Below, in pieces: positions 854-61,807 of a stretch of DNA of 64,000 nt; the first letter of the stretch is position 1, and each line of letters starts with the position of its first letter. The notes under the pieces are model-generated. The model made no database searches and had not been told where the DNA came from. It saw only the letters and a list, made by a program, of their open reading frames with translations. This stretch comes from Spirochaetia bacterium (lineage in GTDB: Bacteria > Spirochaetota > Spirochaetia > SZUA-6 > Bin103), in contig CBDAOI010000004.1 in the NCBI GenBank assembly GCA_965198005.1, positions 1,536,001-1,600,000 on the forward strand, given 5' to 3'. A program made the translations under genes and the position numbers.

Positions 854-889
854 GCCCGCTGCCAAGGATTCTGGCATGTCTCTCGATCG

Positions 890-1250
890 TATCAATAGGG
901 TGTAAGTCTCGAATTGAGCGATTAGAGGGGGTCTGGTGCGACTCCAGGACAGGTTGGACGCGCGACGGTGACAAAGTGTCACGCGCCGGGAGGTAGCGGC
1001 TCCCAGCACCGGTACTGCGGCTGTCCCGGAGGCAGCGGTCGGCGTGATGGCAGGCGGGGGAAATGGGTGCGAGGTTTGCCCCGGTTTGGGCCGTTTGGGG
1101 TAGGGGGTAGCAAAGCCTCCCAGTCGATAGCACAATGGCTATGACTGGGAGGTCAACTATGGATAGGGTGTAGGTCTCGTATTGAGTGAATCAGAGGGGC
1201 AAGATCTGGTTTGGAGGACGATTGCAGCGCAGGGGTGACAAAGTGTCACG
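890..1250 (+). repeat. Two imperfect ~93-bp direct repeats, each ending in palindrome GTGACA-AAG-TGTCAC, with a hairpin between them
   Basis: 890-982 vs 1158-1249; palindromes at 968-982 and 1235-1249; hairpin cctcccagtc-g-atagc..gctat-gactgggagg at 1116-1152. Confidence 0.8.
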
Positions 1251-1543
1251 CAGGGCGGTGCGAGCGCGTGCGACCGCTGACCTCCTCGGGCGCGCCCGAG
1301 CGGGCGCGGGGTGCTCTCCAAAAAAAATCGAAAAATCGCTGTTGAGCGGCGTTTGGAGCTTGACACGGTTTTCACAGCTCGCCGCGGCCCCGCGCCAACC
1401 CACGCCACAATCTCCCGCACAAGCGGCGTAGCCTGCGCTGGAGCGGCCGCCAACCCAATCCGGCCCCGAAACTCCAAAATCGCCGAACCAAGCCCGTCAC
1501 GGCCGCGTACGGCCCCGTCCAAAACCGGGTGTACCATACAGCC

Positions 1544-3223
1544 ATGGAAACCGCCATGGAACAATCAGCATCCCGCACGGCGCCGCCACCGGCCCCGGCG
1601 CCGGCCGCCCCGCTCGACCTGGATCAGCTCGGCGACCGCATCGCCGAACTCTCCGCCCGCATCCAGGCCGCCACCTACGACCTGCTCTGTGACCTACGCG
1701 ACTTCGACCGCCGCCACGGCTGGGAAGGCTTCCGCTCCTGCGCCCACTGGCTCAACTGGCGCACCGGCCTCGACCTCGGCGCCGCGCGCGAGAAGCTGCG
1801 CGTGGCCGCCGCCCTGGCCGACCTCAACCACGTGAGCGCCGCCATGGCCTGCGGCGTGCTGTCCTATTCGAAGGTACGGGCGCTTTCTCGGGTGGCGACC
1901 CCGCTCACCGAGGCGCGGCTGCTGGCGGTGGCGTGCGGCGCGACCGCCGAGCAGGTGGAGCGGCTGGTGCGCGGCTGGCGGCGGGTGGACCGGGAGGCGG
2001 CGGCGGCCGGCGACGATGGCGCGCAGGTGCGCCTGGCGCGGCGCGGGTTGAGCCTGCGGGTGGACGAAGACGGGACGGTGGTGCTGCGCGGGCGGTTGCT
2101 GCCGGAGGTGGGGGCGGTGGTGCTGCGGGCGCTGGAGGCGGCGCTGGAGCAGGTGCCGGCGGCGGCGGCGGACGGCACGGAGTGCACTGCCTCGCAACGG
2201 CGCGCGGATGCGCTGGGGGTGGTGGCGGAGAGCGCGCTGGCCGGCAAGCTGGACCCGGGCGCGGCCGGTGACCGCTACCAGGTGACGGTGCACGTGGACG
2301 CGGCGGCGTTGGCCGCCGGTGAGACTGCCCCCGAGACTGCCTCCGACGCGCCGGAGATTTCCGCGGAAACGTGCGCCGGTGCTCCGGCCGCGGCAGCGAG
2401 CGCCCCGGCTGCGTCGGCAGCCGGCTGCGCGGCCGCTGACGCCGGCGCAGTTTCAGCGGAAACGCGGGGCACCGGCCGGACTGCGCCACCGGCGATGCCG
2501 GCAGCACCGTGCGCCGCCGGTGAGACTGCCGCCCAGCCGGTCGCACCGCCGGTCACCGCTCCCGTCGCGGACGCCCCTGAGCACACCGCCGCCGGCGCGC
2601 AGGTCCCCGCACCGGTGGCGCCGGCGCCGGCAGCCGACTCCACCCCCGCCGCCGGCGCGGCGGTCATCGAACAGGCGAATGGCATTCACCTCGCTGCGAC
2701 CGCAGCCCGCCGCATCGCCTGCGACGCCGGCCGCGTGCTGGTGACCCACGCTCCCGACGGCGCAGTCCTGGAGGTCGGGCGCAGAACGCGCACGGTGCCG
2801 ACTCCGTTGCGCCGCGCGCTGGAGGTCAGAGACCACCATCAGTGTCAGTTCCCCGGCTGCCAGCTCCGCCACTGCGACGCGCATCACGTCGTGCACTGGG
2901 CGGACGGCGGGGCGACGCGGCTCGAGAATCTCGTTTTGTGCTGTCGCTACCACCACCGGGCGGTGCACGAGGAGGGGTTTCAGGTGGTCTCTGACGGGGA
3001 TGGGCAGTTTGTGTTCCGGCGGCCGGATGGTACGCCGCTGCCGGCGGTGCCGGTGGCGCCGCGTTGGGAGGGAGCGCCGCTGGAGCCGACCGAGGCGCGG
3101 CTACGGCAGGCGGGGATCACGATCGGCCCGCATACGGCGACGCCGGAGTGGTACGGGGAGTCGCTCGACCTGGCGGCGTCGCTCGACGTGCTTTGGGAAC
3201 CGCCGCCGGCCGGCGGTTCATGA
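1544..3223 (+). CDS. DUF222 domain / HNH endonuclease (13E12-repeat-like family)
   Basis: N-terminal FDRRHGWEGFRSCAHWLNWRTG; RRIACDA..VLEVGRRTR; C-terminal RDHHQCQFPGC..CDAHHVVHWADGGATRLENLVLCCRYHHRAVH. TACCAT -10 lies 6 nt before ATG 1544. Confidence 0.92.
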   Translation: METAMEQSASRTAPPPAPAPAAPLDLDQLGDRIAELSARIQAATYDLLCDLRDFDRRHGWEGFRSCAHWLNWRTGLDLGAAREKLRVAAALADLNHVSAAMACGVLSYSKVRALSRVATPLTEARLLAVACGATAEQVERLVRGWRRVDREAAAAGDDGAQVRLARRGLSLRVDEDGTVVLRGRLLPEVGAVVLRALEAALEQVPAAAADGTECTASQRRADALGVVAESALAGKLDPGAAGDRYQVTVHVDAAALAAGETAPETASDAPEISAETCAGAPAAAASAPAASAAGCAAADAGAVSAETRGTGRTAPPAMPAAPCAAGETAAQPVAPPVTAPVADAPEHTAAGAQVPAPVAPAPAADSTPAAGAAVIEQANGIHLAATAARRIACDAGRVLVTHAPDGAVLEVGRRTRTVPTPLRRALEVRDHHQCQFPGCQLRHCDAHHVVHWADGGATRLENLVLCCRYHHRAVHEEGFQVVSDGDGQFVFRRPDGTPLPAVPVAPRWEGAPLEPTEARLRQAGITIGPHTATPEWYGESLDLAASLDVLWEPPPAGGS

Positions 3224-3347
3224 CGGCCGCGCCACCTGCCGGCGGGATGCGCCCGCGCATGGTCGAGCTGGCACACGGCCGTGCTGCCTTGACCGGTCAA
3301 TTTGAGACCTACGCCGTATCAATAGGCGCGTCGCTGATGGCACACGG

Positions 3348-3617
3348 TCATCGACGCTTCCGGATTGCAGACGGTGGACTGAAGGGCTCGATCCGGGGAT
3401 TGGAGTAAGGACCTTCCACTTGCCATCCCGAACCACTCCGAACCTTGGCCGCCGCGCTGTCCGCCACGAGGATCGTGAACAGGCCCTCGTCAGAGTCGAT
3501 CTCTACAACACCGAAGCTCTCGTCGAATTCCGCCGCGGTGAGTCCGTATCGAGAACGCACCGACGCTACGGTCGGCCGCTTCCCTTTCGCGCGAATTGTG
3601 AGCATTACTCCGCTCAT
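3348..3617 (-). CDS. Small hypothetical protein immediately downstream of the S8 peptidase
   Basis: 89-aa ORF with protein-like composition, starting 9 nt after the peptidase stop. Confidence 0.6.
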   Translation of the reverse strand: MSGVMLTIRAKGKRPTVASVRSRYGLTAAEFDESFGVVEIDSDEGLFTILVADSAAAKVRSGSGWQVEGPYSNPRIEPFSPPSAIRKRR

Positions 3618-3626
3618 GAATTCATC

Positions 3627-4560
3627 CTAACCACATGCGAACCGGTCGGCGATCCAGCAACCGTTCACGGTGCCCCATCCGTACTCGAAGTCGTAGCCGA
3701 TACCACCGGCTTCCTTGGCGCTCTTAGTGAGTATGTCCCGTACGGCCGCCGGGGATGTTTCGGGTCGGGACGGGTCGTACGGGAGCTTTGTACGCAGCGC
3801 CGCCACGACACCGGCCACGACAGGTGTGGCAGCCGATGTGCCCGCATCCGCCGCGTACACGCCGGAGCCCTTGAAGTGGGTGTATCCCGCGAGATCCGGC
3901 TTGCGCCGTGCCAGACGGCCCGGTCCGATGCTAGAGTATCCCACGCGGTTCCTGGTCACGTCGACACCGGCGACACACGTCACCTGGGGATGAGAGTTCG
4001 CGCCGTAAATCGTGTTCGCCGTGATGTTCTGGCATCGCGGATCGGGGCAGTCCGGGCCGCAGTTGCCCGCAGCAAACAGGATGTCGGCGCCCGCGCGTTC
4101 CAGGACTCCTACGATGCGATTGAACGGATGGTTCTGATTGTCGCTGTAGTTGCCGGGCAGTCGGCGTATACGCCGACCACGCTCTCGCTGGCCTTCACTT
4201 CCCTGTTGAACGCGGATTGCGCCTTGTCGGCAACGGACCCACGCAGGAGGTATGTCGCGTGTTTCGGGTCCAGGTCGGGTACGTATGTCGGCAACGGACC
4301 CACGCGTGTTTCGGGTCCAGGTCGGGTACGTAGCGTTCGCTCACGTCGAGCGAATTCGTCGGCGGTCCGATGGGCATGCGTGCGGGTACGTCAATCGGGG
4401 CGAACGTCGTGTCCCATTCAATCGCGCTCAGCGTGGGAGCCGCCTTGTCGTCGAGGCTGCGCTTCCCTGCGAATCCTGCCGTTCGACAAGCTTCGTGTAG
4501 TTCGTCGGAGTGTTTTGCTTCGACAATGACTTGAAATGGTCTATCGGACGCTTGACGCAC
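3627..4560 (-). pseudogene. S8 (subtilisin-like) serine peptidase, internally deleted
   Basis: ILFAAGN (oxyanion Asn), KPDLAG and GTSAATPVVAGVVAAL (catalytic Ser); no catalytic Asp/His segment seen; frames broken; local duplication at 4226-4332. Confidence 0.8.
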
Positions 4561-23884: not shown

Positions 23885-24757
23885 CAGAAGACCAACCCCG
23901 AAATCCAGGTGAGCAGTTATTTCCAGCGGTCGTTTACAACCGTTACTCTGAACACTCGTAAGTCGCCCTTGGACGACATCAGGGTGCGCCACGCACTGCA
24001 GATGGCACTGGACCTCGAGACGATTAACGATACCTACTATGGCGGCTATTCGATATGGGAACCTATGGGGGGACTTGCCGTCAAGCCGTATCTCTTCCCA
24101 TTTGAAGAGTGGCCCGAAGATCTCAAGCAATACTACAGGCATGACCCGGAAGGTGCTGAGAAGCTGCTTGACGAGGCTGGATATCTGCGAGGCGCGGGCG
24201 GCGTTCGATTCAAGCTCACCTATGACCACCGCGACATCATGGATTTAGGCTATGTAGAAATAGCTGCCGGATACTGGGCTGATATTGGCATTGATGTAGA
24301 GATTAATGTAGTACCAGGTTTGACGTGGTGGGGTAACAGAGGAGGGTCTGATGGAGATGAGGGAGACATTACTTATGAGATGAGCACTGGCGACAGTGGC
24401 TTTTATAGTGCCCCAACCGTGTGGGTAGGCTTTTATACCACGGCCTTAACATCCCTGCGCGAATACCAGGGCGGAAACAACACGGGCGGAAAGAAGACCC
24501 CTGAGTTGACCGCCGCGTATGATGCCTTTATCGCCGCTAACACCAAAGAGGAGCAGCTGAGGGCATTCAGAGAGTATGATTTGTTCCTGTTAAAGCAGCA
24601 CAATCAGATATGGGGTCCTATGGCTCCAGTTTATCAGGTGACCCAGCCGTGGGTCCAAGGTTTTAACGGTGAATGGATGCTCGAAGAATCGGGCGTACGT
24701 GACGTCCTCATACACCTTTGGATTGACCAGGCGCTGAAGGAAGCAATGGGACACTAG
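23885..24757 (+). pseudogene. Family-5 ABC substrate-binding protein, C-terminal half only
   Basis: KTNPEI..PLDDIRVRHALQMALD..EKLLDEAGY..LWIDQALKEAMGH; homologous to 41385-43166. Confidence 0.9.
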
Positions 24758-24786
24758 GAGTCTGTCGGATTGCGACCGACTCCTAG
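24754..24786. mobile_element. Collapsed IS/MITE scar with CTAG ends
   Basis: CTAGGAGTC-tgtcggattgcgacc-GACTCCTAG; the left CTAG supplies the SBP stop codon. Confidence 0.5.
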
Positions 24787-24943
24787 TGATCGTACGGGAT
24801 GGGCCAAAAGCGTCGACCCGGGCGACGGTGGGGCGCTAGGGAGTTCGCCCCTCCTGACTACGTGAGAATGGGGCTGGAAGCGCGTTCGGAGCGCCACTTC
24901 TGATCGCGCTTCCGAGCCCTCACTCAATGAATAAGGTGTCCCC

Positions 24944-25900
24944 GTGAGAGTCTATCTCATCAGGCGATTGTTGCTGATAATCCCCACCCTGTTTATCTTG
25001 ACCATCCTCGTCTTTCTCGGGGTCCGCTTCATCCCCGGCGATGTAATAGACGCAATGGTGCTGAGGATGGATACTTCGACCGGCCGGATTGACCGTGAAG
25101 CTGTTGAGCGTAGGCTGGGATTAGACCTGCCTGTTTACGTACAGTATGGACGCTGGTTAGGAGATATTTTCCTGCGCGGCACCCTTGGCGAATCACTGGT
25201 TGGCGGTTATACGATAGAGGAGAGGATACTAGAAAGATTGCCAGTAACCGTTGAGCTTGGTGTCATGGCAATCGTTCTCGGCCTGGTAATAGCCCTGCCC
25301 GTCGGCATCTACTCGGCGATTCGCCAGGATACTGCCGCTGACTACGCGGGGCGCTCTATTGCCATCATCGGCCTGGCCACACCCAACTTCTGGCTGGGCA
25401 TTATGGTCATGATCTACCCCGCCATCTGGTGGGGCTGGTCGCCAGCGATGGAGCTGGTTCCTTTTCAGGAAGACCCGCTGAGCAATCTCGGCATGTTCCT
25501 CGTTCCCAGCCTGATTTTGGGGACGGCCTCGGCTGCAGGCGCAATGCGGTTGACGCGCACCATGATGCTGGAGGTGCTCCGGCAGGACTACATCAGGACG
25601 GCCTGGTCCAAGGGTCTCAAGGAGAGGGTAGTTATTGTGAGACACGCCGTCAAAAATGCGCTCATCCCGGTGGTGACCCTGATCGGCCTGCAGCTGCCGA
25701 TTCTGGTGGGTGGCTCAGTGATCATGGAGAACATATTTAACCTGCCGGGGATAGGTCGTCTCCTGCTGACTGCACTCGAAAACAGAGACTACCCGGTGGT
25801 CTCCGGAATAAACCTGTTCTTCGGCGCCACGGTTATGGGGATCAATCTAATGATCGACCTGATTTATCCTTTTTTGGACCCCACGATCCGTTACAGATAA
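24944..25900 (+). CDS. ABC permease, OppB/DppB-like
   Basis: YLIRRLL, LPVTVELG, RTMMLEVLRQDYIRTAWSKGL, RDYPVV. Confidence 0.95.
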   Translation: MRVYLIRRLLLIIPTLFILTILVFLGVRFIPGDVIDAMVLRMDTSTGRIDREAVERRLGLDLPVYVQYGRWLGDIFLRGTLGESLVGGYTIEERILERLPVTVELGVMAIVLGLVIALPVGIYSAIRQDTAADYAGRSIAIIGLATPNFWLGIMVMIYPAIWWGWSPAMELVPFQEDPLSNLGMFLVPSLILGTASAAGAMRLTRTMMLEVLRQDYIRTAWSKGLKERVVIVRHAVKNALIPVVTLIGLQLPILVGGSVIMENIFNLPGIGRLLLTALENRDYPVVSGINLFFGATVMGINLMIDLIYPFLDPTIRYR

Positions 25901-25918
25901 AGGGGAAAAACCACGAGT

Positions 25919-26809
25919 ATGGGTAATGTCACAGGGATACCGTCACAAGCAGGTGAGCCAAAGAGACGTACCAAGCTGGCTGATTTCTTTATCAGGCTGT
26001 GGAGGGAGAAACCACTAGGTATAATCAGCGGGATTATGATATTGATATTGATTCTTGTGGTTATCTTCGCCGATGCTCTGGCTCCTTATCGTTACATGGA
26101 AATACACCTGGCAGACAGGATGCAGGGCTCATCAGCCCGGTATCTCCTGGGGACCGACTACGTGGGGCGAGACTTGTTGAGCCGCCTTATCCACGGGGCT
26201 CGTCTTTCGTTGGCTGTCGGTTTGGCGGCGACCGCTCTCAATGTTGTCATCGCTGTCCTGATAGGCGGCATTTCAGGATTCTTTGGCGGTAAATTGGACC
26301 TGACTGTGCAGAGATTCGTCGATGCCTGGATGGCTTTCCCCGCACTGCTCCTGTTGTTAACGATAATGTCCATAGCGGGGCGAGGTCTGCCACAGATTAT
26401 ACTGGTCCTGGGGATATCAGGAGGCATCGGCAGCTCAAGAGTAGTCAGAGGCGCCGTTATTGGCGTCAAAGAGAAAGTCTATTTTCAGGCAGCGGCGGCG
26501 ATTGGCAGCTCAAAATGGAGAACTTTTATCCGACATGTCCTGCCCAATGTTGCGGCTCCCGTAATTATCATATTTAGCATCAACATCGGGGGGGTGATTA
26601 TTTCTGAGGCTTCCCTAAGCTTCCTCGGATTCGGTTTGCCAGTCGACTTTCCTAGCTGGGGAGGTATGCTCAGCCGAGAAGGGCGTAAGTATATGGAGGC
26701 GGCGCCATGGCTGGCTCACATGTTCGGTGACGCGGTGAGGGACCTGCTCGATCCAAGGTTGCGGGGTGGTGGTGGGGTTCTCGCTGGCAGCGGCGCCACG
26801 TCGGTTTGA
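25919..26809 (+). CDS. ABC permease, OppC/DppC-like, missing most of the last TM helix (possibly non-functional)
   Basis: LLGTD..GRDLLSRL, RHVLPN; APWLA joins HMFGDAVRD, about 15 aa shorter than its paralogs. Confidence 0.85.
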   Translation: MGNVTGIPSQAGEPKRRTKLADFFIRLWREKPLGIISGIMILILILVVIFADALAPYRYMEIHLADRMQGSSARYLLGTDYVGRDLLSRLIHGARLSLAVGLAATALNVVIAVLIGGISGFFGGKLDLTVQRFVDAWMAFPALLLLLTIMSIAGRGLPQIILVLGISGGIGSSRVVRGAVIGVKEKVYFQAAAAIGSSKWRTFIRHVLPNVAAPVIIIFSINIGGVIISEASLSFLGFGLPVDFPSWGGMLSREGRKYMEAAPWLAHMFGDAVRDLLDPRLRGGGGVLAGSGATSV

Positions 26810-26879
26810 GAGAGTGCGCGTGCGTTCCGCACCCAGTATCACGCCGGATGCACGGTGACCGCCACCCGTGGCAGCCTCC

Positions 26880-27075
26880 CTGCCGCCCCGCTCAGGCAGC
26901 GGCTTGAGGCCAAAGTCATCCAGCACAAGGAGAGCTACGGTCCCGACTTGGCGCAGCCGGCGCTGGTAGGTGCCGTCGCCGCGGCCGGCGTGGATCCAGT
27001 CGAACAACACGCTGGTGCGCTCATAGGTGACCTCGTACCCCTTGCGACAGGCGATGTGCCACAGCGCCTGAGCTG
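26880..27075 (-). mobile_element. IS21 helper ATPase (IstB) remnant
   Basis: AQAL..ACRKGYEV..GRGDGTYQRRLRQ..LLVLDDFGLKPL. Confidence 0.8.
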
Positions 27076-43194: not shown

Positions 43195-43510
43195 AGGGAA
43201 AAAGGGAGCTGGGAGTAAACCCCACAAGATCTCCGATATTACGGGGGCCCCAGTAAGCGGTTCCCGCAGCAAGCTGCGGGACGAGGGTCAAGCTTCCCAG
43301 CTCCCACACAAGATGTCTTTGCGAGGAGTCCGCCTTAGGGGGATTAAACTCCAGACGATAGGTTATTTGTATCTACCTCACCCCCTGTATGCCCCTCTCC
43401 AAGATTAGGAAGATGAGGGGATACCCCCCTCTTGTACACCTCCTGTCAAAGGAGAGGGGGAAGGATTAGGAGATCGCCACGCCCTTCAGTAGAAGGGCTC
43501 GCAATGAGGT
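43195..43510. repeat. REP-like palindromic elements between SBP and permease
   Basis: gggagctgggag..cttcccagctccc (also at 51782-51840 and 59931-59985); cccctctcc..ggagagggg; tgtctttgcgag..ctcgcaatga. Confidence 0.65.
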
Positions 43511-43517
43511 GTGTCAC

Positions 43518-44477
43518 ATGAGAGCCTATATCATGAGGCGGTTATTGCTGATAATCCCCACCTTGTTTATATTGACTATCCTCGTCTTTCTCTCCGTCCG
43601 CTTCATCCCCGGCGATATCATCGACGTCATGATTGGAGATTTGGCGTACATGGGTGCCGGCGATATAGACCGTGAAGCTCTTGAGCGTAAGCTGGGATTA
43701 GACGTACCTGTCTACGTGCAGTATGGACGCTGGGTGGGAGATATCTTACTACACGGCACCCTTGGCGAATCACTGCTTGGCGGTTTCACAATAGAGGAGA
43801 GGATACTCGCCAGATTGCCGGTAACGATTGAGCTTGGCCTCATGGCAATCGTAATCGGGCTAGTGATAGCCCTGCCAGTTGGCATCTACTCGGCGATTCG
43901 CCAGTATACGGTCGCCGACTACGTGGGGCGCTCCATCGCCGTCGTCGGCCTGGCAACGCCTAACTTCTGGCTGGGTATTATGGTCATGATCTTCCCGGCA
44001 ATCTGGTGGGGCTGGTCGCCACCGATGAAGCTAATTCCTTTCACCGAAGACCCGCTGGGGAATCTGGGGATGTTCCTCATTCCCAGCCTGATTCTGGGGA
44101 CGTACCTTTCTGCAGCCACCATGCGGATGACCCGCACCATGATGCTGGAGGTGCTGAGGCAGGACTATATCAGGACGGCCTGGTCCAAGGGACTCAAGGA
44201 GAGGGTCGTTGTTATGAGACACGCCGTCAAGAATGCCCTCATCCCGGTAGTTACCCTGATAGGACTGCAGATGCCCATCCTGGTAGGCGGCTCGGTGATC
44301 ATGGAGAACATCTTCAACCTGCCGGGATTAGGTCGTCTTATGCTGGATGCACTCCAAGTCAGAGACTACCCGTTGGTCTCCGGAATAAACCTGTTTCTTG
44401 CCACGGCGGTTATTGGAATCAATCTCATGATCGACCTGATCTATCCTTATTTAGACCCCGCGGTCCGTTATAAATAA
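43518..44477 (+). CDS. ABC permease, OppB/DppB-like
   Basis: Paralog of 24944-25900. Confidence 0.95.
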   Translation: MRAYIMRRLLLIIPTLFILTILVFLSVRFIPGDIIDVMIGDLAYMGAGDIDREALERKLGLDVPVYVQYGRWVGDILLHGTLGESLLGGFTIEERILARLPVTIELGLMAIVIGLVIALPVGIYSAIRQYTVADYVGRSIAVVGLATPNFWLGIMVMIFPAIWWGWSPPMKLIPFTEDPLGNLGMFLIPSLILGTYLSAATMRMTRTMMLEVLRQDYIRTAWSKGLKERVVVMRHAVKNALIPVVTLIGLQMPILVGGSVIMENIFNLPGLGRLMLDALQVRDYPLVSGINLFLATAVIGINLMIDLIYPYLDPAVRYK

Positions 44478-44494
44478 AGGGGGTAATCACGAGT

Positions 44495-45427
44495 ATGAGT
44501 GATGCTATAGGGATACCATCAACAGTAAGTAAGCCAAAGAGACGTACCGGGCTGGCTGATTTATTCATCAGGCTGTGGAAGGAGCAGCCACTAGGTACTG
44601 CCTGCGGGATTGTTGTATTGATATTGATTCTGGTGGCTATCTTTGCCGATGTTCTGGCTCCTTATCCATTTTGGGAAGCGCACCTGGTAGACAGGATGCA
44701 GGGCTCATCAACCCGGTATCTGCTGGGTACCGACCATGCGGGGCGAGACCTCTTGAGCCGCCTTATCTACGGGGCTCGCATTTCGTTGCTTGTCGGCCTG
44801 GTAGCGACTAGTGTTAATGTTGTGGTGGCTATCCTGATAGGCGGCATCTCGGGATTCTTTGGCGGTAAACTGGACTTGGCTGTGCAGAGATTTGTCGATG
44901 CCTGGATGGCTTTCCCGGGACTGCTCCTGTTGTTAACCGTAATGTCCATAGTGGGGCGGGGTGTGCCACAGATAATATTGGTCCTGGGGATATCAGGAGG
45001 CATCGGCGGCTCAAGAGTAGTCAGAGGCGCGGTGATTGGGGTCAAAGAGAAAGTCTATTTTCAGGCGGCGGAGGCAATTGGCAGCTCAGAATGGAGAACA
45101 CTTATCCGACATGTCCTTCCCAATATTGCGGCGCCCATAATCATCATATTCAGCATCAACATCGGAGGGGTGATTATCAGTGCGGCTTCTCTGAGCTTCC
45201 TCGGATACGGTCTGCCAGTCCAGATTCCCGACTGGGGTGCTATGCTCAGCCGGGAAGGACGTCAGTACATGGAGTCGGCGCCATGGCTGGCTCTCTGGCC
45301 TGGTCTCTGCCTAACTGTAACCGTTTACAGTCTAAACATGTTCGGCGACGCGGTGAGGGACCTGCTGGACCCGAGGCTCAGAGGTGGCGGGGGGCGCCTG
45401 GGTGGTGATGCCGCCCGGTCGGTTTAA
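44495..45427 (+). CDS. ABC permease, OppC/DppC-like
   Basis: LLGTD..GRD, RHVLPN, WPG..NMFGDAVRDLLDPRLR. Confidence 0.95.
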   Translation: MSDAIGIPSTVSKPKRRTGLADLFIRLWKEQPLGTACGIVVLILILVAIFADVLAPYPFWEAHLVDRMQGSSTRYLLGTDHAGRDLLSRLIYGARISLLVGLVATSVNVVVAILIGGISGFFGGKLDLAVQRFVDAWMAFPGLLLLLTVMSIVGRGVPQIILVLGISGGIGGSRVVRGAVIGVKEKVYFQAAEAIGSSEWRTLIRHVLPNIAAPIIIIFSINIGGVIISAASLSFLGYGLPVQIPDWGAMLSREGRQYMESAPWLALWPGLCLTVTVYSLNMFGDAVRDLLDPRLRGGGGRLGGDAARSV

Positions 45428-45578
45428 GAGAGCTGTCCAGGAACAAGAAGCCAGCGTGACGTACCGCATGCGCGCCCTCTAGTCGGGCTGCTCCGCAGGT
45501 GGGGTCGGCCCCAGATGTCTTCGCGCTCGATCACCCCGCCGCCGGCATCCTTCGGCTTCGCCACCGCCCCGCCGACCG

Positions 45579-45890
45579 GTGCGTGCGCGGCCGAACGGCA
45601 GCCCGCGGGTCACGCCGGATGAACGGTGACCTCCACCCGATGGCGCCCTCCCTGGCGCCCCAGGTGTGCATGCGCCGTTGGCTGTTCCGGAGGCGCGCCC
45701 GGAACGCGCCCGACCAGGTCGACCAGCGCGGGGCTGTGTATGGGCGTGACCTGGCCGGTCAGCTCAAGGCGTCGCCTGGCATCGTAGTGTCTGCGCATCA
45801 TCGGGCACCGCAGACCGAGTCGGCGGAGTGTACCGAGTCGGTGCTCCCGTAGAGCCGGCTCCGTGCGGCGCGCCAGGTACTCGCCCGGGG
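45579..45890 (-). repeat. Repeat 'R', copy 2
   Basis: ttccggaggcgcgcccggaa, gcatcgtagtgtctgcgcatcatcgggcaccgcagacc. Confidence 0.88.
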
Positions 45891-45891
45891 G

Positions 45892-46233
45892 CTACAGGGT
45901 GGGACGCTCGACAATGAGGAAACTCTCAAGAGCTGTCTCAAGCTCCAATATTCGATGCTCGTTCTCGGTGAGCAATGCAGCAAGCTCTGTCACAGTGCAG
46001 TTCCCAACGCGCAGCCACACCACTTTGGGTGGTGCCCCGTGGACGAAGCTCAGTTGTCGGAAATCGCTGTCCTTGGAGACGATCGTGAAATCGTTCTGTC
46101 CCGCGTAATCATAGATCTGTGCGTCGGGGGCGTCGTCCAATCCAAGACTGATCACGTGATCGGAACCCGGAAACTTATCGCCCAACGTCTGAAGGAGGCT
46201 TCGTGGGAGATTCTGGTCGAGAAGAAGTTTCAC
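45892..46233 (-). CDS. DUF5615 PIN-like toxin
   Basis: MKLLLDQNL, APDAQI, IVSKDSDF, PPKVVWLRVGN. Confidence 0.9.
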   Translation of the reverse strand: MKLLLDQNLPRSLLQTLGDKFPGSDHVISLGLDDAPDAQIYDYAGQNDFTIVSKDSDFRQLSFVHGAPPKVVWLRVGNCTVTELAALLTENEHRILELETALESFLIVERPTL

Positions 46234-47585: not shown

Positions 47586-48147
47586 AGACGCTCCTTCTCA
47601 TGGACGTGCTGTGTGACATTGCGCCGGTGCGCCTTGATGACCTCGAATGTTGGCATCATGCGCTCGGCCGAGCCAGGGATCAGCTCGTACTCCCGCATGA
47701 TGGACCCGCGGGAGCGTGGGCACCGTTACCTGAACGTCCAACACCTGAGGCTGTGTTGAAGGTGGCTGGGTGAGACAAGTGCGTCCTCGGGTGTCAGAAC
47801 CATTCTATCGAAGTGGTGGAAGACATCCCCTAACTGAGAGAATGCAACAAGATGGTCAGCGCGACCATGCCATCGCTGTATAGCGACGCGAGTAGACCGG
47901 TCGCGAGTCACGGTGGCTATCGTCAAAGTTCCTGGTCGCGCCGCTTCGCCCACGGTCTGCAACCGAGCAGCGTGGCGCAGGGACTGCCCGGCTGGGGTAG
48001 CCGCCGGACAAACCAGCTTGGCCAGCTGCATACCCGAACGGGACGTCATCGGCCGGATATGCGCCTCCCTTCAGACGACGGATCGCTACGTCGGACCGGA
48101 CCGACAAGTTTCGCCCAGAGAGCGCCCGATTAGCAGCATCGACGTAG

Positions 48148-48613
48148 CTGACCGGCTCGGTCAGCGGGTTCCATGACTCGGCGCTGGTGAGCGTGATGGT
48201 GCACGTGGCTCCGGACGCGCCCAATTCGCCCGCGCCCTCCATGGCGCGGGAACGCCTGTGGTGGGCCCCATGGACGGGGCCCACGAACGGATGACGCGTC
48301 AGTCGTGTGATGAGTTACCCGTGCACTTCGCCGACTCGGTCTGCGGTGCCCGATGATGCACAGACGCTGCGATGCCATGCGCCGCTGCGAACTGACCGGC
48401 CAGGTCATGCCCATACAGAGCCCTGCGCTGGTGACCTGGTCGGGCGCGTTCCGGGCGCGCCTCCGGAAAACAGCAACAACCTCTCCCAGCCGACGACGTC
48501 CCTGTCGCGGGCCGGGAGCTACAGTCCAGCCGTGGCGCCAGGGATGGCGCCACGGCTGGAGGTCACCGTGCATCCGGCGTGACCCGCGGGTTGCCGGTCG
48601 GCCGCGCACGCAC
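48148..48613 (+). repeat. Repeat 'R', copy 3
   Basis: Collinear with the reverse complement of 62810-63266; several hairpins. Confidence 0.9.
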
Positions 48614-48796
48614 GGGTCGGCGTGGCGGTGACGGAACTAAAGGATGGCGGCGGCGGCGCGGCCACACCGAGGGCCTCTGGGCTCGACCCGTTCGCACGGC
48701 TGGGTGGGGTGGACGGCCGCCCGCGCGCGCGCGTGGTCACCTGGGAAGCATCCCGATTGGGAACCGTATGGCCGTACGTCGCGCGTGGTGCTGGCG

Positions 48797-49717
48797 TCAT
48801 CTTCCTTCACTGAGACCACCACCACCGCCCCTCAGCCTCGGGTCTAGCAAGTCCCTCACGGCGTCACCGAACATGTTCAGGCTGTAAACAACGATGGTCA
48901 GCGCGACGCCTGGCCATAAAGCCAACCATGGCGCGTGCTCCATGTACCTACGCCCTTCCCGGCTGAGCATACCTCCCCAGCTAGGAATGTTCGGTGGCAG
49001 ACCGAATCCGAGGAAGCTCAGAGAGGCCTCAGATATAATCACCCCCCCGATGTTGATGCTGAAGATGATGATGAGGGGCGCCACAATATTGGGCAGGACA
49101 TGCCGCAACAGGATTTGGGTCGTGGGGGTGCCCACGGCCTTGGCTGCCAGAAAATAGTCATTCTCCTTAATTTCGATAACGGCGCCTCGGAGTACTCTCG
49201 AGCCGCCGATGCCCCCTGCTATCCCCAAGACCAAGATGATCTGGGGCAGACCCCGCCCCGCTATGGACATGATGGTCAATAACAGAAGCAGGCCCGGAAA
49301 AGCCATCCAAGCATCGACAAATCTTTGCACACCCAGGTCCAGTTTACCACCAAAGAATCCTGAAATGCCGCCTATCAGGACAGCCACCCCAACATTGAGA
49401 GTGGTCGCGGCCAGACCGACGGTTAACGAAAGACGAGCCCCGTAGACAAGGCGGCTCAGGAGGTCTCGCCCCAACTGGTCGGTACCCAGCAGATACCGGG
49501 CTGATGCGCCCTGCAGCCTGTCCACCGGGTGTATTTCCATATAGCGATAAGGAGCCAGAACATCAGCAAAGATAGCGACGAAAATCAATATCAATATGAT
49601 AATCCCGCCGGCAGTACCCAGTGGCTTCTCCCTCCACAGCCTGCTCAAGAAATCAGCCAGCCGGGAACGTCTCTTTGGCGCAATTTCTGCTGACGGTCTG
49701 CCTATGGCGTCGCTCAT
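48797..49717 (-). CDS. ABC permease, OppC/DppC-like
   Basis: Paralog of 44495-45427. Confidence 0.95.
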   Translation of the reverse strand: MSDAIGRPSAEIAPKRRSRLADFLSRLWREKPLGTAGGIIILILIFVAIFADVLAPYRYMEIHPVDRLQGASARYLLGTDQLGRDLLSRLVYGARLSLTVGLAATTLNVGVAVLIGGISGFFGGKLDLGVQRFVDAWMAFPGLLLLLTIMSIAGRGLPQIILVLGIAGGIGGSRVLRGAVIEIKENDYFLAAKAVGTPTTQILLRHVLPNIVAPLIIIFSINIGGVIISEASLSFLGFGLPPNIPSWGGMLSREGRRYMEHAPWLALWPGVALTIVVYSLNMFGDAVRDLLDPRLRGGGGGLSEGR

Positions 49718-49726
49718 ATGCCCCCT

Positions 49727-50683
49727 TTAGCTGTAGCGGACCCTGGGGTCCAAGTACGGATAAATCAGGTCGATCATCAGATTGGCCCCCAAAACCGCGG
49801 TGGCAAAAACCAGGTTTACTCCGGAGACCACCGGGTAGTCTCTTTGACTGAGTGCCTTCACCATGAGACGACCTAACCCCGGCAGGTTGAATATGTTCTC
49901 CATGATAACGGAGCCGCCTACCAGGATAGGCAACTGCAGGCCGATCAGGGTAACTATCGGGATGAGGGCATTCTTGATGGCGTGTCTCAGAACGACGACC
50001 CTCTCATTGAGACCCTTGGACCAGGCCGTCCTTATATAGTCTTGCCTGAGCACCTCCAGCATCATGGTGCGCGTCATCCGCATGGTGGCTGCCGACAGGG
50101 CCGTCCCCAGAATCACAGCAGGAATGATGAACATCCCGAGATTCCCCAGCGGGTCTTCGGTGAAGGGAATCAGCTCTACCGATGGCGACCAGCCCCACCA
50201 GATTGCCGGGTAGAGAATGACCATGGTTGCCAGCCAGAAGTTGGGCGTTGCCAGGCCGATGATGGCGATGGTGCGCCCCACGTAGTCGGCGGCCGTATCC
50301 TGGCGAATCGCCGAGTAGATGCCGACCGGTAGGGCTATCAACAGCCCTATTACGATTGACAGAACACCCAGCTCGATGGTTACTGGCAATCTACCGAGAA
50401 TCTTCTCTTCTACCGCCGCAACGCCCCACAGTGATCGGCCGAGGGTGCCGTGCAGGAAAATATCTCCCATCCAGCGTCCATACTGTACGTGGACAGGCGC
50501 GTCTAAACCCAGCATACGCCGAAGAGCTTCCTCGTCCACTACTTTCCCTTGCCCAAAGCTCGTATCCGCAAAAAAGTCTACTATATCGCCGGGGATGAAG
50601 CGGACGGAGAGAAAGACCAGGATGGTCAGTATGAGCATGGTGGGGATTGTCAGCAACAACCGCCTGATGGTATAGGCTCTCAT
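49727..50683 (-). CDS. ABC permease, OppB/DppB-like
   Basis: Paralog of 43518-44477. Confidence 0.95.
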   Translation of the reverse strand: MRAYTIRRLLLTIPTMLILTILVFLSVRFIPGDIVDFFADTSFGQGKVVDEEALRRMLGLDAPVHVQYGRWMGDIFLHGTLGRSLWGVAAVEEKILGRLPVTIELGVLSIVIGLLIALPVGIYSAIRQDTAADYVGRTIAIIGLATPNFWLATMVILYPAIWWGWSPSVELIPFTEDPLGNLGMFIIPAVILGTALSAATMRMTRTMMLEVLRQDYIRTAWSKGLNERVVVLRHAIKNALIPIVTLIGLQLPILVGGSVIMENIFNLPGLGRLMVKALSQRDYPVVSGVNLVFATAVLGANLMIDLIYPYLDPRVRYS

Positions 50684-50728
50684 GTCACAGCTTATTGAGC
50701 GTCCGCAGCAAAACCCGGCGCACGGGCA

Positions 50729-51721
50729 TCAAAAAACAACGTCTACTCCCCTTTCTCGGAGCTTGGAGATATGGACTTCCTTCGATGTCTCGCTCAAGGG
50801 GTTACCGGACAAACTGACTGTGTCCCCCTCAGAGAGCCCGCGGTTCTCGACCAGTGGTGAGATGTCGACTATCTGGTTGAACATGAGGTCGAGCTGGGCG
50901 AGATTAGTCAGGGAAGCTAGCGGTGAGAGGTCACTTATCTGATTCTGCTCAAGGCTGAGCGAGGTGATGCTGGTGAGGGAAGCTACCGGTGAGATGTCGC
51001 TTATCTGGTTCTGCTCAAGACTAAGCGCGGTTAAGTTGGTCAGCGGAGCCAGTAAGGAAGCCAGTAGTGAGAGGTCGCTTAGCTCGTTCCCCGTAAGGTC
51101 GAGCTCGGTGAGATTAGTCAGGGAAGCTAGCGGTGCAATGTCGCTTATCTGGTTCAACGCAAGGTCGAGCTCAGTGAGGTTAGTCAGAGAAGCCAGTGGT
51201 GAGATGTCGCTTATCCGGTTCTTCCTAAGGCCGAGATTGGTGAGATTAGTCAGGGAAGCTAGCGGCGAGATGTCGCTTATCCGGTTGTCGTAAAGGCTGA
51301 GCGAGGTGAAGTTGGCGAGCGAAGCCAGTGGTGAGAGGTCGCTTATCCGTCCATAGTGGAAAACCAGCTCGGTAAGGTTACTCAAATACTCCAATCCGGC
51401 GAGGTCGGTGATCTTGACTCTCGCATATCCCCTGCCTGATTCACGAAGCGAGGTGATGGTTTCCAGCTCCGAAACATGGATGGGACCTTGATGCTTCTGG
51501 ATAGCTGCCCTTATGACTCTCTCAAGAGCTTCGTCGGGGATGGTGACCCCTTCGCCCACTTCTTCTGTAGCACTAACAGGTTCTTCTGTAACACTAACAG
51601 GTTCTTCTGCAGTACTTGCAGGTTCTTCTGCAGTATTTACAGGTTCTTCCGCAGGGCCACAGCCGGAAAGAGTGAATATCATTACGAAGACAACGAACAA
51701 AGGCAAGCATTTCCTATCCAT
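50729..51721 (-). CDS. Internalin-like leucine-rich-repeat lipoprotein
   Basis: Lipobox LSGC; 7-aa (21-bp) EEPxxxx repeats at 51560-51650; cap VTIPDEALERVIR; ~22-aa LTNLTELDL..NQISDISPLAS repeats; own TATAAT and AGGAGGT. Confidence 0.92.
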   Translation of the reverse strand: MDRKCLPLFVVFVMIFTLSGCGPAEEPVNTAEEPASTAEEPVSVTEEPVSATEEVGEGVTIPDEALERVIRAAIQKHQGPIHVSELETITSLRESGRGYARVKITDLAGLEYLSNLTELVFHYGRISDLSPLASLANFTSLSLYDNRISDISPLASLTNLTNLGLRKNRISDISPLASLTNLTELDLALNQISDIAPLASLTNLTELDLTGNELSDLSLLASLLAPLTNLTALSLEQNQISDISPVASLTSITSLSLEQNQISDLSPLASLTNLAQLDLMFNQIVDISPLVENRGLSEGDTVSLSGNPLSETSKEVHISKLRERGVDVVF

Positions 51722-57217: not shown

Positions 57218-57547
57218 TTAGACTTAAATGATCAATCATTGATTGCGAACTACTCCACTCTTCATGGTATCCGGGATCTTCGGAACTTGCTGGCTCACGA
57301 AGTATCAGAGACAACCACGTGGCACAGCTTCAACACCGATCTTGGCGTCGTCGAAAATGAACTCCAGCATCTCGGCTTCGTCGGGGATCGTCCAGAATAT
57401 AAATACTTCGGTGAACGCTCTGCGATACGCGGGAGCGATGAGCCCGGCATCGCATTTGTGCAGGATTTTCGATTTGGAATCAAATGCAATGATCGCGTGA
57501 CCATGGAAATCTCGTTCACACGAAAGACACACAATGCTGGAGATTAG
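57218..57547 (+). pseudogene. 5'-truncated low-GC protein with HEPN-like RxxxxH motif
   Basis: Frame open up to the IS end; GIRDLRNLLAHE. Confidence 0.5.
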
Positions 57548-57808
57548 GTGGGCGTTTATCATTATGCCTTCTATGCGTTCACGAGCCGATAATTTCGCGA
57601 TAATTGACGCGTTTTCGTAATGATCGCTCCAGGATGATACATTGGCAGAGATTTCACAACCTCCGTTATCTTGTGTCGCCGAGAACATCATCAAACGGAG
57701 TCCCGCACTTCCTCTGAGGGGCCAATCGATATAGGTTATTCCTGGAACTGCCTGCCATGTATCTGCCTTCTCGGGATTTTGGGGATCATGTCGGGAATTA
57801 AGAAGATT

Positions 57809-58729
57809 TTACGCTCTTTCCTGCATACGCTCGACGCCACCTCTCAGCCTCGGGTCAAGCAGGTCCCTCACGGCATCGCCGAACATGTTTAGACTCCAAA
57901 CGGTAATCGTCAGGGCAAGACCCGGCCAGAGAGCCAGGTGTGGCGCTATATCCATGAACCTACGTCCTTCCTGGCTGAGCAGACCACCCCAATCAGGAAT
58001 CTCGGGAGGCAGACCGAATCCGAGGAAGCCCAGAGAAGCCAAAGTCAGGATTACGTCTCCTATACGCATGCTGAATGAAATGATTATGATAGGCATCACA
58101 TTGGGTATGACATGTCGCAGAAATGGTCTAAATCTTGAGCTGCCAATCGCCTCCGCCGCCTCAAAATACACATTCTCCTTAATGCCAATGACGGCGCTTC
58201 GGATTACTCTACTGCCGCCGATGCCTCCTGATATGGCCAGAACCAGTATTATCTGTGGCAAACCCCTTCCCACTATGGACATTACGGTTAACAACAGGAG
58301 CAGTCCCGGGAAACTAATCCAGGTATCAACAAATCTCTGCACACCCAGGTCCAGTTTACCACCAAAGAATCCTGAGATGCCGCCTATCAGGGTACTGAGC
58401 ACAACATTAAGTGTGGTCACTGTCAGACCGATAAGTACGGAAATACGAGCCCCATAGATAATGCGGCTCAAGAAGTCTCGCCCCAGCTGGTCAGTACCCA
58501 GGAGATACTTGGCTGATGAACCCTGAAGCCTGTCTACCAGGTGTAATTCATCATACGGATAAGGGGTCAAAACACCGCCAAAGATAGCCACAAAAATCAA
58601 TATCAATAAGATAATCCCGCAGGCAGTACCCAGTGGCTTCTTCTTCCATAGCCTGATAAAGAAATCAGCCAGCCTTTTACGTATCTTTGGTTCGCTTACT
58701 GCTGATGGTGTCCCTGTGCCGTCACTCAT
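57809..58729 (-). CDS. ABC permease, OppC/DppC-like
   Basis: Paralog of the other OppC-like genes. Confidence 0.95.
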   Translation of the reverse strand: MSDGTGTPSAVSEPKIRKRLADFFIRLWKKKPLGTACGIILLILIFVAIFGGVLTPYPYDELHLVDRLQGSSAKYLLGTDQLGRDFLSRIIYGARISVLIGLTVTTLNVVLSTLIGGISGFFGGKLDLGVQRFVDTWISFPGLLLLLTVMSIVGRGLPQIILVLAISGGIGGSRVIRSAVIGIKENVYFEAAEAIGSSRFRPFLRHVIPNVMPIIIISFSMRIGDVILTLASLGFLGFGLPPEIPDWGGLLSQEGRRFMDIAPHLALWPGLALTITVWSLNMFGDAVRDLLDPRLRGGVERMQERA

Positions 58730-58747
58730 ATTCCCGATATTCCTCCC

Positions 58748-59776
58748 TTATCTATAACGGACCCTGGGGTCTAAATAGGGATAAATCATGTCGGTAAGTA
58801 GAATGGCCAACATAGTTATGCCGCCGAAAAACAGGTTTACTCCGGAAATCACCGGGTAGTCTCTAAGACTGAGTGCCTCCAGAAAGAAACGACCTAACCC
58901 CGGCAGGTTGAATATGCTCTCTATGATAACTGAGCCACCTACCAGCAGGGGCAAAGACCCACCTACCAGGGTAACTACCGGGATGATTGCATTCTTCATG
59001 GCGTGTCTGATAATGACTACCCTCTCCTTGAGACCCTTGGACCAGGCCGTCCTGATATAGTCCTGCCTGAGCACCTCCAGCATCATGGTGCGCGTCAACC
59101 GCATTGTGCCGGCAGCCATGCCCGTCCCCAGAATCAGGCTGGGAATGATGAACACCCCGAGATTCCCCAGCGGGTCTTCCACGAAAGGAACCCACGTCAT
59201 CGGTGGCGACCATTTCCACCAGATTGCCGGGTATACCATGACCATAAGTGCCAGCCAGAAGTTGGGCGCTGCCATGCCGATGATAGCGACGGTGCGCCCC
59301 GTGTAGTCGGCGGCGGTATCCTGGCGAATCGCCGAGTAGATGCCGACTGGCAGGGCTATCACTAGCCCGATTACGATTGCCATGACGCCAAGCTCAATGG
59401 TTACCGGGAGTTTACGTAATATCCTCTCCTCTATCGAAAGAGATGAAGCCGGCGAGGTTGAGAAGTATTCGCCACGCTCAAACAGTGATTCGCCAAAGGT
59501 GCCCTGGAGGAGACCTTTGAAGTGGGACTCACCGGTAAACCAGTCAGGGGTCGGCAACACTCCTATCCAGCGTCCATACTGCACGTAGACAGGCACGTCT
59601 AATCCCAGCTGATGCTCAAGAGCTTCACGGTCAATATCGTATCCGAACTCCATCCGAGCCGCCATTGCGTCTATTACATCGCCCGGGATGAAGCGGACCG
59701 AGAGAAAGACTATGGTACTCAATATAAACAAGGAGGGGATTATCAGCAATAACCGCCTGATGAGATAGGCTCTCAT
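58748..59776 (-). CDS. ABC permease, OppB/DppB-like, with loop insertions
   Basis: Paralog carrying extra VLPTPDWFTGESHF and ERGEYFSTSPASSL segments. Confidence 0.95.
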   Translation of the reverse strand: MRAYLIRRLLLIIPSLFILSTIVFLSVRFIPGDVIDAMAARMEFGYDIDREALEHQLGLDVPVYVQYGRWIGVLPTPDWFTGESHFKGLLQGTFGESLFERGEYFSTSPASSLSIEERILRKLPVTIELGVMAIVIGLVIALPVGIYSAIRQDTAADYTGRTVAIIGMAAPNFWLALMVMVYPAIWWKWSPPMTWVPFVEDPLGNLGVFIIPSLILGTGMAAGTMRLTRTMMLEVLRQDYIRTAWSKGLKERVVIIRHAMKNAIIPVVTLVGGSLPLLVGGSVIIESIFNLPGLGRFFLEALSLRDYPVISGVNLFFGGITMLAILLTDMIYPYLDPRVRYR

Positions 59777-59789
59777 GTCACACTACTCC

Positions 59790-59990
59790 TTGTCATTGCG
59801 AGCCCCCCCCCCCCGTCATTCCCGCGAAAGCGGGAATGCATAGTAATTTCAAATGGTTGCGTTTTCTGGATTCCGGGTCTTCGCCCGGAATGACAGTGAG
59901 AAAGCGCCCCTCTCATTATTTGAGGAGTATCGGGAGCTGGGAAGCGCGCCTGCAGGCGACAGCCTCCCAGCTCCCCTTTTCCCTGAGCTA
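59790..59990. repeat. REP-like palindromes (GTCATTCCCGCGAAAGCGGGAAT type) and the post-SBP hairpin
   Basis: gtcattcccgcgaaagcgggaatg..ttccgggtcttcgcccggaatgac; gggagctggga..tcccagctccc; poly-C at 59803-59814. Confidence 0.75.
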
Positions 59991-59996
59991 AGCCAC

Positions 59997-61807
59997 CTAA
60001 TAACCCATGGCTTCCTTCATCTCGGAATCAATCCAGAGGCGGGCCCATAACTGACCATAACGCTGCCCCCAACCCAGCTGGAATTCACCGTTGTAGCCTA
60101 CGAGCCACGGCTGGTTCACGTTAAACATTGGGACTTTGAAGTACCATACGTAGTAATGGTTCTTAATCATGTACGCATCCGCCTCTTTCAGTCGCCTCTG
60201 CTGGTCCTCCAAGGTGGTAGCGGCTTCGGCGGCTTCAATCAAGCTATCAAGATGCTCGTCCTGTACTCCCGGTATGTTAACCGTTCCTTCCGAGTGACCA
60301 AAAGCGCGCATCATCCACATGGGGTCTCCATGATCGAACCCCAACATCGCCGATGTCATACCTTCGTAGCTATGGTCACGTGAAATAGCTTGCCAATGAC
60401 CAGAGGTGTCGACGGGTACATTTACCTCTACATCAACGCCAATCGCAGCCCAGTAGTCGGCAGCTATTTCTGAAAGGCTTGTGTCCCCTAACGCCACCCC
60501 AAACTGCGTCTGGGTGGTCTTGAATCTAATGCCATCCGCACCGCGCGGGTATCCAGCCTCATCAAGCAGCTTCTCGGCCCCTTCCGGGTCATACCTATAG
60601 CCTTTCTTGACCTCTTCGGGCCACTCATCAAATGGGACGAAATAATCCACAACACCGTCACCTATCACCCCCTGAGGTATCCACTTAGCCCGACCCTTGT
60701 AGTAGGCATTGTTGACTGTCTCGAGGTCCTGAGCCATCTGCATTGCCTTGCGCACCCGGATGTCGTCAAAGGGCGACTGACTTACGTTCATGGCAAAAGA
60801 TGTGTAGTCCGACCGAAATTGGTACGGGAGAAACTTGAGTTCGGGGTTGGTCTTCTGGAGGCCATCTACTTGGTCGAGTCTTGTTTCACTGCCGCCACTG
60901 AAACCCATGTAATCAATCTTACCCGTGCGCATTGCCGAAATACGCGTTGCCTCATCTTCCATCATCAGGAGCCTTATCTCGTCAAAATAAGGCAAGCGGT
61001 TCTCCGGGAACTTCTCGTCATAGCCCCAGTAGTCAGGATTCTTGGTCCAGGTGGCAGAGGTCGCCTCGACAACATCAGTCAGCATAAAGGGACCGGTGCC
61101 GACCAGGTTCCTCCAATCGTTAGCGTCCCCGTGTTCCTCGATTACCTCGGGGGGATATATATAAGGATCATAGTTGTTGAAGATAACCGACAGCACCCCG
61201 AGGTATGGCTTCGTCAGCTTAAAAACAACCGTCCAATCGTCGGTAGCCGTTACCGATTCAATTGGCAGGCTCTCATATTTTTGGACAGGTCCAAATTCAC
61301 TCCACTTGCCCAGACCAAAATAGCGGTGCCAGTTGTATTCCACATCCTTGGCAGTTAGCTCCCGACCGTTCATCGGCTCCTTATCGTGCCAGTGAACGCC
61401 CTTGCGGATGTAGAAGACTATCGTTGTGTCGTCGGGCGTTTCCCAGCTTTCCGCCAGCTGCCCTATCATGACCCAGAGAGGTACAGCCGACTAATGTGGT
61501 CATGTACGTCCCTATCTATTCCCCAGTCCGCGATGGATAGCCTCTCGACGACGCCACCCGCCGCAGCTAGGCCGCCGGTGGGTGTGGGATAACTGTCAGT
61601 GTTTTGACCTGTTTGGTATCGGCTGACCCAGGTGAATGTCCCGCCATACTCTGGCGCGGGCACCTCCTTGCCGGTGGTGGGGTCGGTCACGTACTTCTTG
61701 TCGGCGGCCGCTGCCGGCTCCTCTTCTGAGCCAGCGGCCCACAGGCCGGTTGCGCTCAGAATCAGGACCAACGTAATCGCGAAGGTCCTTGCAAAAAATA
61801 TCTTCAT
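59997..61807 (-). pseudogene. Family-5 ABC substrate-binding protein split by one frameshift near 61470-61500
   Basis: N-part ends ..HDHISRLYLSGS*; C-part VPLWVMIGQLAESWE.. is in another frame. Real lesion or sequencing error. Confidence 0.9.

Follow-up and report, generated by a model that had tools for sequence, protein, structure and literature searches.

The DUF222-HNH locus

The window, as we call the whole stretch of 64,000 nucleotides analysed from a Spirochaetia bacterium, contains close to its start a single DUF222-HNH gene between terminal inverted repeats (TIRs) and short direct repeats (Table 1). An exact 12-bp direct repeat (888-899 and 3315-3326), inverted arms immediately inside it (899-917 and 3297-3315) agreeing at 16 of 19 positions and a DUF222-HNH gene in between had been claimed in the earlier note, and all three are present; the protein matches PF02720 with 68 bits and PF01844 with 22.4 bits, both above the cut-off. 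Exact 12-bp repeat pairs lying 1-5 kb apart are common (105 in the window), and the 888/3315 pair is the single one among them with inverted arms of at least 15/19 inside the repeat. In the whole 4.89-Mb genome the 12-mer occurs at these two places only.

The boundaries of the element had to be redrawn. The actual arms are 20-bp TIRs at 898-917 and 3297-3316, and the 12-bp repeat is an 8-bp target duplication specific to this site plus adjoining matches rather than an att core, its four additional matching bases being G's at the terminus of the left repeat and matches next to it. The right end finishes in G, unlike the other six right ends, which finish in C, and it fits equally well if the duplication is 9 bp long and the right end shorter by one base. 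A second left end at 1166-1185, accompanied by a second copy of the internal 15-bp palindrome, had been overlooked. All other copies that have a left end begin at the equivalent of position 1166 and none at 898. The cassette that forms the mobile unit spans 1166-3316 and has no transposase; the window copy additionally bears a 268-bp ISKra4 left end.

Table 1. Features of the DUF222-HNH element in the window
Feature	Position	Strand	Remarks
Left 8-bp target-site duplication	890-897		Same as 3317-3324; one of three pairs among 19 ends
ISKra4 left end, E2 type	898-1165	+	97.8% identity to the left 270 nt of C4:2300442-2302601; contains TIR 898-917, palindrome 968-982, upstream region and first frame codons (ATG 1159)
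AT-rich 8-mer, putative insertion site of the cassette in the IS	1158-1165		E2 homology ends at 1165
True cassette left end (E1), ISKra4-derived	1166-1251	+	TIR 1166-1185, palindrome 1235-1249
DUF222-HNH gene leader	1320-1543	+	A-tracts, TTGACA 1360-1365, -10-like TACCAT 1532-1537
DUF222-HNH gene, 559 aa	1544-3223	+	Pfam, invariant residues, AlphaFold model, fold search
Right end, ISKra4-derived	3263-3316	+	Remnant of the last transposase codons and TIR 3297-3316
Right 8-bp target-site duplication	3317-3324		Same as 890-897

The element lies between a frameshifted serine-acetyltransferase-like duplicate (430-850; label assigned by eye), which is 92.7% identical to C2:360830-361128, and a broken subtilase gene (3420-4420) with a short internal duplication. 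Elsewhere in the window, ABC peptide-transporter permeases belonging to very large families of paralogues occupy the regions 24400-27000, 43400-46000, 48000-51000 and 57500-60000, where 500 nt can have up to 135 matches in the rest of the genome.

Terminal repeats are those of an ISKra4 element

The 20-bp end motif, with at most one mismatch, occurs 19 times in the source genome (G000), namely as seven cassette left ends, seven cassette right ends, four ends of a second element (E2) or its fragments and one other. E2, located at C4:2300442-2302601, has the same ends, an 8-bp duplication and a 621-codon open frame which scores 214 bits on the ISKra4 profile NF033572 (cut-off 205). The first 86 nt and the last 53 nt of the cassette (E1) align to the ends of E2, the latter including the final transposase codons. 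The left end of the cassette is 74% identical to that of E2 and 70% identical over 97 nt to that of a full ISKra4 element in the relative G013, and its right end is 85% identical over 53 nt to that of E2. The DUF222-HNH frame is the only long conserved ORF between the cassette ends and the terminal codons are all that remain of a transposase; tblastn with the E2 transposase found no ISKra4 transposase at the window locus, and the protein of the element has no NCBIfam ISKra4 match.

Ends of the same kind lie beside a transposase stretch 65-86% identical to that of E2 in five (G003, G013, G014, G018 and G022) of the 23 further genomes searched from this family, and beside a short remnant in a sixth (G020). 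Full ISKra4 elements of 1674-1688 bp are present in G013, G014 and G018 with the same ends, the left-end palindrome and transposases 69-74% identical to that of E2; 8-bp duplications flank two of these three and also one 1080-bp deleted copy. E2 itself is about 480 bp longer than its relatives, contains an additional N-terminal piece of ISKra4 type (47% identity to locus L024) and is, in G000, one base shorter near the first ATG than in contigs from other sequencing runs. Because of these oddities E2, the sole near-complete partner of the cassette in G000, may be inactive today.

The earlier note had held that end motifs occurring independently of the gene would speak against a mobile gene element. 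They do so in part, since the motif is also found on the ISKra4 elements and on a 198-bp MITE in G022 (L025/L152), which is flanked by an 8-bp duplication and terminates in these same ISKra4 repeats. In G000 an Rpn-like gene at C3:473147 (L004) directly adjoins a left end of ISKra4 type, and no right end was found there.

Target duplications and insertion sites

Among the 19 ends, three pairs share their 8-bp flanks, those of the window element, of a second cassette at C4:75269-77471 and of E2, and the three duplications all differ in sequence. Both cassette copies with two ends have a duplication of their own. The eight bases beside the 19 ends contain on average 5.6 A/T, as compared to 2.7 genome-wide, and the 8-mer at 1158-1165 follows the pattern W-W-W-N-N-W-W-W seen at other junctions. 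A single frame of 43 codons reads through across the insertion site in the window flanks, which is a weak sign of a once-continuous target. According to the available part of the family description (PMC3942029), p-MULT elements have inverted repeats of 18-39 bp, direct repeats of 8-9 bp and move via circles with 6-10 bp between the ends; the repeats and the duplication of the window element fall in these ranges. Promoter-targeted insertion was considered and rejected, as no enrichment of -35 boxes was seen at the 19 junctions.

Contigs from five sequencing runs (X1, X2, X3, X6 and X8) contain neither an empty site nor a circle junction, but contigs drop rare forms and so cannot show the absence of either. 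Three RNA runs listed contain 6-9% of the words sought. Among the matches listed for 40 relatives, a list that leaves out 32 weaker ones, there is no orthologous flank.

Copies in the source genome

Six large copies of the cassette are present in G000, of which three keep an intact frame, two keep both ends and four have lost an end, together with more than a dozen fragments. The second complete cassette, at C4:75269-77471, is 94.9% identical to the one in the window. In contigs from the four other sequencing runs compared here (4/4) the E2-type left end runs on into the IS at the equivalent of position 1165, which is the state before the nested insertion. The simplest history, and a likely one, is that a cassette jumped into the start of the IS and then moved together with the outer left end.

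In five cassette fragments (G000 C4:818301, C4:1899446, C3:529381, C3:532772 and C4:1168152; window equivalent about 2930-2942) the sequence is broken off in the codons surrounding the HNH asparagine, always by the ends of a single different element. This interrupting element has three tyrosine-recombinase-like frames between C3:529382 and 532771 and, judged by eye, we take it to be of the RIT type. The same HNH motif is also where three further cassette copies have a truncation or frameshift. These breaks may reflect a parasite that targets the active site of the nuclease, or else selection favouring dead copies.

Copies in related genomes

We compared 28 copies from five genomes of the same genus (G001, G003, G005, G006 and G007). 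Paralogues without the ends, the other finding named beforehand as speaking against an element, account for part of this set, as 21 homologous copies in G001, G003 and G007 have no common terminal repeat. Four copies in G005 and G006 lie between different repeats, of which the right one is also found next to an ISAs1 transposase; a 9-bp duplication is exact in one of them, matches at 8/9 positions in another and is not evident in two. These ISAs1-shelled copies group in a clade of their own, separate from those of G000. Because the gene sits here in unrelated, ISAs1-adjoining ends, the ends go with the IS and not with the gene. Capture in an IS shell would have taken place independently in ISKra4 and, in a sister species, in ISAs1.

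In G005 and G006 (L117, L140 and L141) ISAs1-type ends with 8-9-bp duplications also enclose a cassette of about 1.4 kb whose gene, without an NCBIfam name, was labelled PD-(D/E)XK/Rpn-like by eye. A TTGAC is located 18 nt outside the ISAs1-type right end in three of six copies (right flanks of L046, L047 and L051), and this element behaves as if inserting upstream of promoters.

The best titled homologues come from Spirochaetia, followed by Acidobacteriota, Methylomirabilota and Gammaproteobacteria; viral contigs contributed only one locus, which is HNH-only. TIRs as a general trait of the family were rejected, as a detector of TIRs plus duplications found them in 10 of 68 loci (including five duplicates and the window) and in 14 of 204 mismatched flank pairs. 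Two of its ten matches are the ISAs1 shell and the other eight resemble GC-rich chance; among more distant homologues it gave no excess of such ends, and it missed the window's own element.

The DUF222-HNH protein

Both PF02720 and PF01844 are matched in all 30 aligned homologues, and the HNH residues and the zinc ligands are invariant across 30 and 123 sequences. The predicted layout comprises a ParB/KorB-like helical domain (residues about 36-150), a disordered linker (263-379) and an HNH domain (420-492) with zinc-binding Cys and His residues. In the AlphaFold model (pLDDT 76.6) the N-terminal part is helical, and there are also a hairpin with helices, the disordered linker and the HNH domain. 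For the HNH part, IscB gives the best fold match and McrA-type HNH domains match as well, with Z up to 8.1. The N-terminal part resembles the DNA-binding domains of ParB, Spo0J and KorB with Z of 7.6, 6.2, 5.4 and 5.1 (rmsd 2.7-3.7 over 91-104 residues), values that lie below the tool's caution line of 8, and profile comparison with ParB is weak (probability 3.4%). We describe it as a predicted ParB/KorB-like DNA-binding domain, and the protein as a predicted nuclease with conserved HNH motif residues.

No DDE, Tyr or Ser recombinase is among the 50 fold matches of the whole 559-residue model, a list that leaves room for such folds, nor is a Tyr or Ser recombinase found by Pfam or NCBIfam. The match to the IscB profile is restricted to the HNH residues (29 bits, cut-off 175), the RuvC part being absent. 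Solved structures were matched through the HNH alone, and the clusters obtained from the Atlas were unnamed and below 0.9. The three intact G000 copies have a dN/dS of 0.32-0.62 among themselves, and in six other pairs it is 0.22-0.39, the set leaving out 6 of 18 relative copies for which no full frame was recovered.

A leader with widely spaced promoter-like boxes

Upstream of the gene, TTGACA is followed by a second hexamer at a distance of 172 nt (start to start) in the window, where the ATG sits 6 nt past TACCAT. We take the two hexamers to be -35 and -10 boxes, on the grounds of the sigma-70 consensus and of the spacing of 23-24 nt found in G000. At 170-175 nt, as compared to 23-24 nt, the boxes are about 150 nt further apart than normal. 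In G000 a -10-like hexamer stands at 23-24 nt in 124 of 891 TTGACA sites, and the long form is present only at the six cassette leaders. Across the genus 39 matching sites were found in seven of 11 genomes, all with gaps of 160-164 (155-180 allowed), and none of these 11 genomes has a short-gap form of the leader.

The TTGACA box is present in 44 of 63 loci, and with a strict pattern the hexamer at 171-175 nt follows in 24 of 25 Spirochaetia, 13 of 16 Methylomirabilota and two of three Acidobacteriota. The same leader appears in an independent metagenome set, in which 62 of 80 loci have enough flank: TTGACA was found in 47 of the 62, as compared to one of 53 control downstream flanks, and among these 47 a hexamer follows at 170-175 nt in 45 and at 22-24 nt in none. 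Spacing of 172-173 nt is seen in 49 of 63 non-redundant leaders, a set chosen for 170-175. Gammaproteobacterial homologues have an ordinary promoter instead of the long leader. At L099, L102 and other Woeseiaceae or gammaproteobacterial loci this normal promoter is overlapped by CTGT-N8-ACAG, presumably a LexA box.

Short A/T and GATCG motifs recur at constant offsets in the 63 leaders, whose mean similarity is 45%, and such a combination of fixed length and free sequence points to DNA geometry. A 10.5-nt periodicity of A/T was not found in the metagenome leaders. RNA structure was looked for as well: there is no Rfam match, the mean folding z of 44 leaders is near 0 and the consensus structure is empty. 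A guide RNA in the leader was rejected (window z 0.69 as RNA and 0.04 as DNA; end complementarity 5.56, as compared to 5.74 with shuffled partners), and so was a precise excision joining the boxes, which is seen in none of the 11 genus genomes and as no joint in contigs of X1, X2, X3 and X8. The leader is likewise not a feature of a host regulon, as its profile gives six strong sites in G000, all of them cassette leaders, and one weak other.

One rather unlikely reading is that the leader is a split sigma-70 promoter whose insert of about 150 bp would be spooled or looped (or excised) by the ParB/KorB-like domain to let the two boxes work as one, and that this spool marks the 5' end of a nuclease gene which spreads itself and repeatedly moves into shells of unrelated IS elements. 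Alternatively, TTGACA may be a binding site for the DUF222-HNH protein or for a parked polymerase. If the two boxes act as one promoter, they would form an unusual control switch.

Probable mobilisation of the cassette in trans

The ends of the cassette, their ISKra4 identity, its copies and its duplications are directly visible in the genome, and from them we infer that the DUF222-HNH gene is likely moved in trans, as a transposase-less cassette in ISKra4 ends, by the DDE transposase of ISKra4. The gene with its own leader would have replaced the transposase gene within an ISKra4 shell, and a second ISKra4 element would then have received one such cassette at its start. By pairing the outer IS left end (898) with the cassette right end (3316), the transposase would have moved the composite to its present place, probably via a circle as for p-MULT elements. 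Acting on the ends, it would duplicate eight AT-rich bases per new site, with the nuclease as a putative passenger in this transposition step. The earlier note had proposed a self-mobilising or trans-mobilised element: mobility is borne out, the trans option is favoured, and self-mobilisation by a recombination core is not supported. A circle intermediate is likely too, as the ordinary route of p-MULT elements (available part of PMC3942029) rather than as an attP junction. The small number of two-ended copies (two of six), the odd E2, the terminal mismatch of the window right end, the missing empty site and circle junction in the contigs of five runs and the 19 junctions without the insertion ahead of promoters that is reported for some ISKra4 elements count against trans-mobilisation.

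Since the gene is under purifying selection and is multicopy without IS ends elsewhere, DUF222-HNH likely has a selfish life of its own. It is possible, if doubtful, that the unit from leader to stop codon spreads itself without terminal repeats, IS capture being a repeated by-product or hijack. The ragged ends of the 21 copies in G001, G003 and G007 without a common TIR would fit, as would Methylomirabilota paralogues, whose homology begins near TTGACA and stops near the stop codon, dN/dS of 0.22-0.62 in the nine computed pairs, the separate clades of ISKra4-shelled and ISAs1-shelled copies and the size of the family, its profile being matched by about 55,000 clusters at 50% identity, HNH-only matches included. 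However, 67 loci have no conserved 3' end motif, guide-like RNA structure is missing, and the end-less copies may be eroded shells, as four of the six large G000 copies are short of an end and L044 retains decayed pieces of an ISAs1 shell. TnpB and IscB favour their IS200/605 elements, and nicking or cutting by the DUF222-HNH protein may similarly favour the cassette, which is compatible with its trans-mobilisation by ISKra4.

It is improbable that an IS inserted at the window site first, that the cassette jumped into it and that a deletion between the similar right ends removed the IS body. The 85% identity of the right ends over 53 nt would allow such a deletion, G000 is full of deletion fragments, and the element terminates in an irregular base. 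Every diagnostic position of the surviving right end, however, is of cassette type, which would confine the crossover to the last 2-3 bases, and the duplication is nonetheless intact. Least probable by far is the attP-like, non-canonical reading of the earlier note, in which the 12-bp core and the DUF222-HNH protein would excise and integrate the element alone through a circle: repeat and arms are real and a DNA-binding domain is predicted in the protein alongside an intact HNH, but the core is in no other copy, the duplications of other copies differ, the arms belong to ISKra4, a DDE family, and homologues use other ends or none.

Comparison with known elements and implications

Mobile insertion cassettes are described, in the available part of PMC3913671, as IS inverted repeats around a passenger, with no transposase and with mobilisation in trans. 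The window cassette is like MIC231 of Bacillus cereus and the qnrD mic in its two IS repeats, passenger, lack of transposase and target duplication. It differs from MIC231 in its shell, which is ISKra4 and not IS231, in the nested extra IS end of the window copy and in its passenger, a predicted DNA-binding HNH nuclease that is itself multicopy elsewhere. With the ISKra4 family (p-MULT 4) it shares 20-bp inverted repeats ending in C and 8-bp direct repeats, and some ISKra4 elements carry extra genes (both from the available part of PMC3942029); unlike these, the window cassette is without a transposase, and the 19 junctions give no indication of the insertion 13-17 bp ahead of -35 boxes that is reported for some ISKra4 elements.

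ISC elements, as far as the available part of PMC4810608 describes them, include non-autonomous forms whose only gene encodes an HNH-containing nuclease and which are mobilised in trans. The likeness to ISC and OMEGA (IscB) systems extends to a lone HNH-containing gene in a non-autonomous transposon and to the HNH fold, whereas the cassette has TIRs and a target duplication in place of IS605-type palindromic ends, no RuvC and no structured upstream RNA. Mycobacterial REP13E12 / DUF222-HNH genes are named repetitive elements in the available part of PMC10589994; they share the Pfam pair and are dispersed and multicopy, but the window gene is bounded by identifiable IS ends and preceded by a fixed-length leader. 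In the mostly open-access literature we found no description of an IS-shelled DUF222-HNH gene or of such a leader, which supplements or ISfinder may hold. The element is of a known kind, a mobile insertion cassette likely moved in trans, in a new shell, and the leader an unexplained and well-supported feature.

Capture in IS shells offers a concrete route of spread for a very large nuclease family whose mobility has been unexplained. The nested window copy is a natural trace of the interchangeability of IS and cassette ends, and the fixed-length leader provides a testable handle on DUF222 binding and on the switching of the nuclease.
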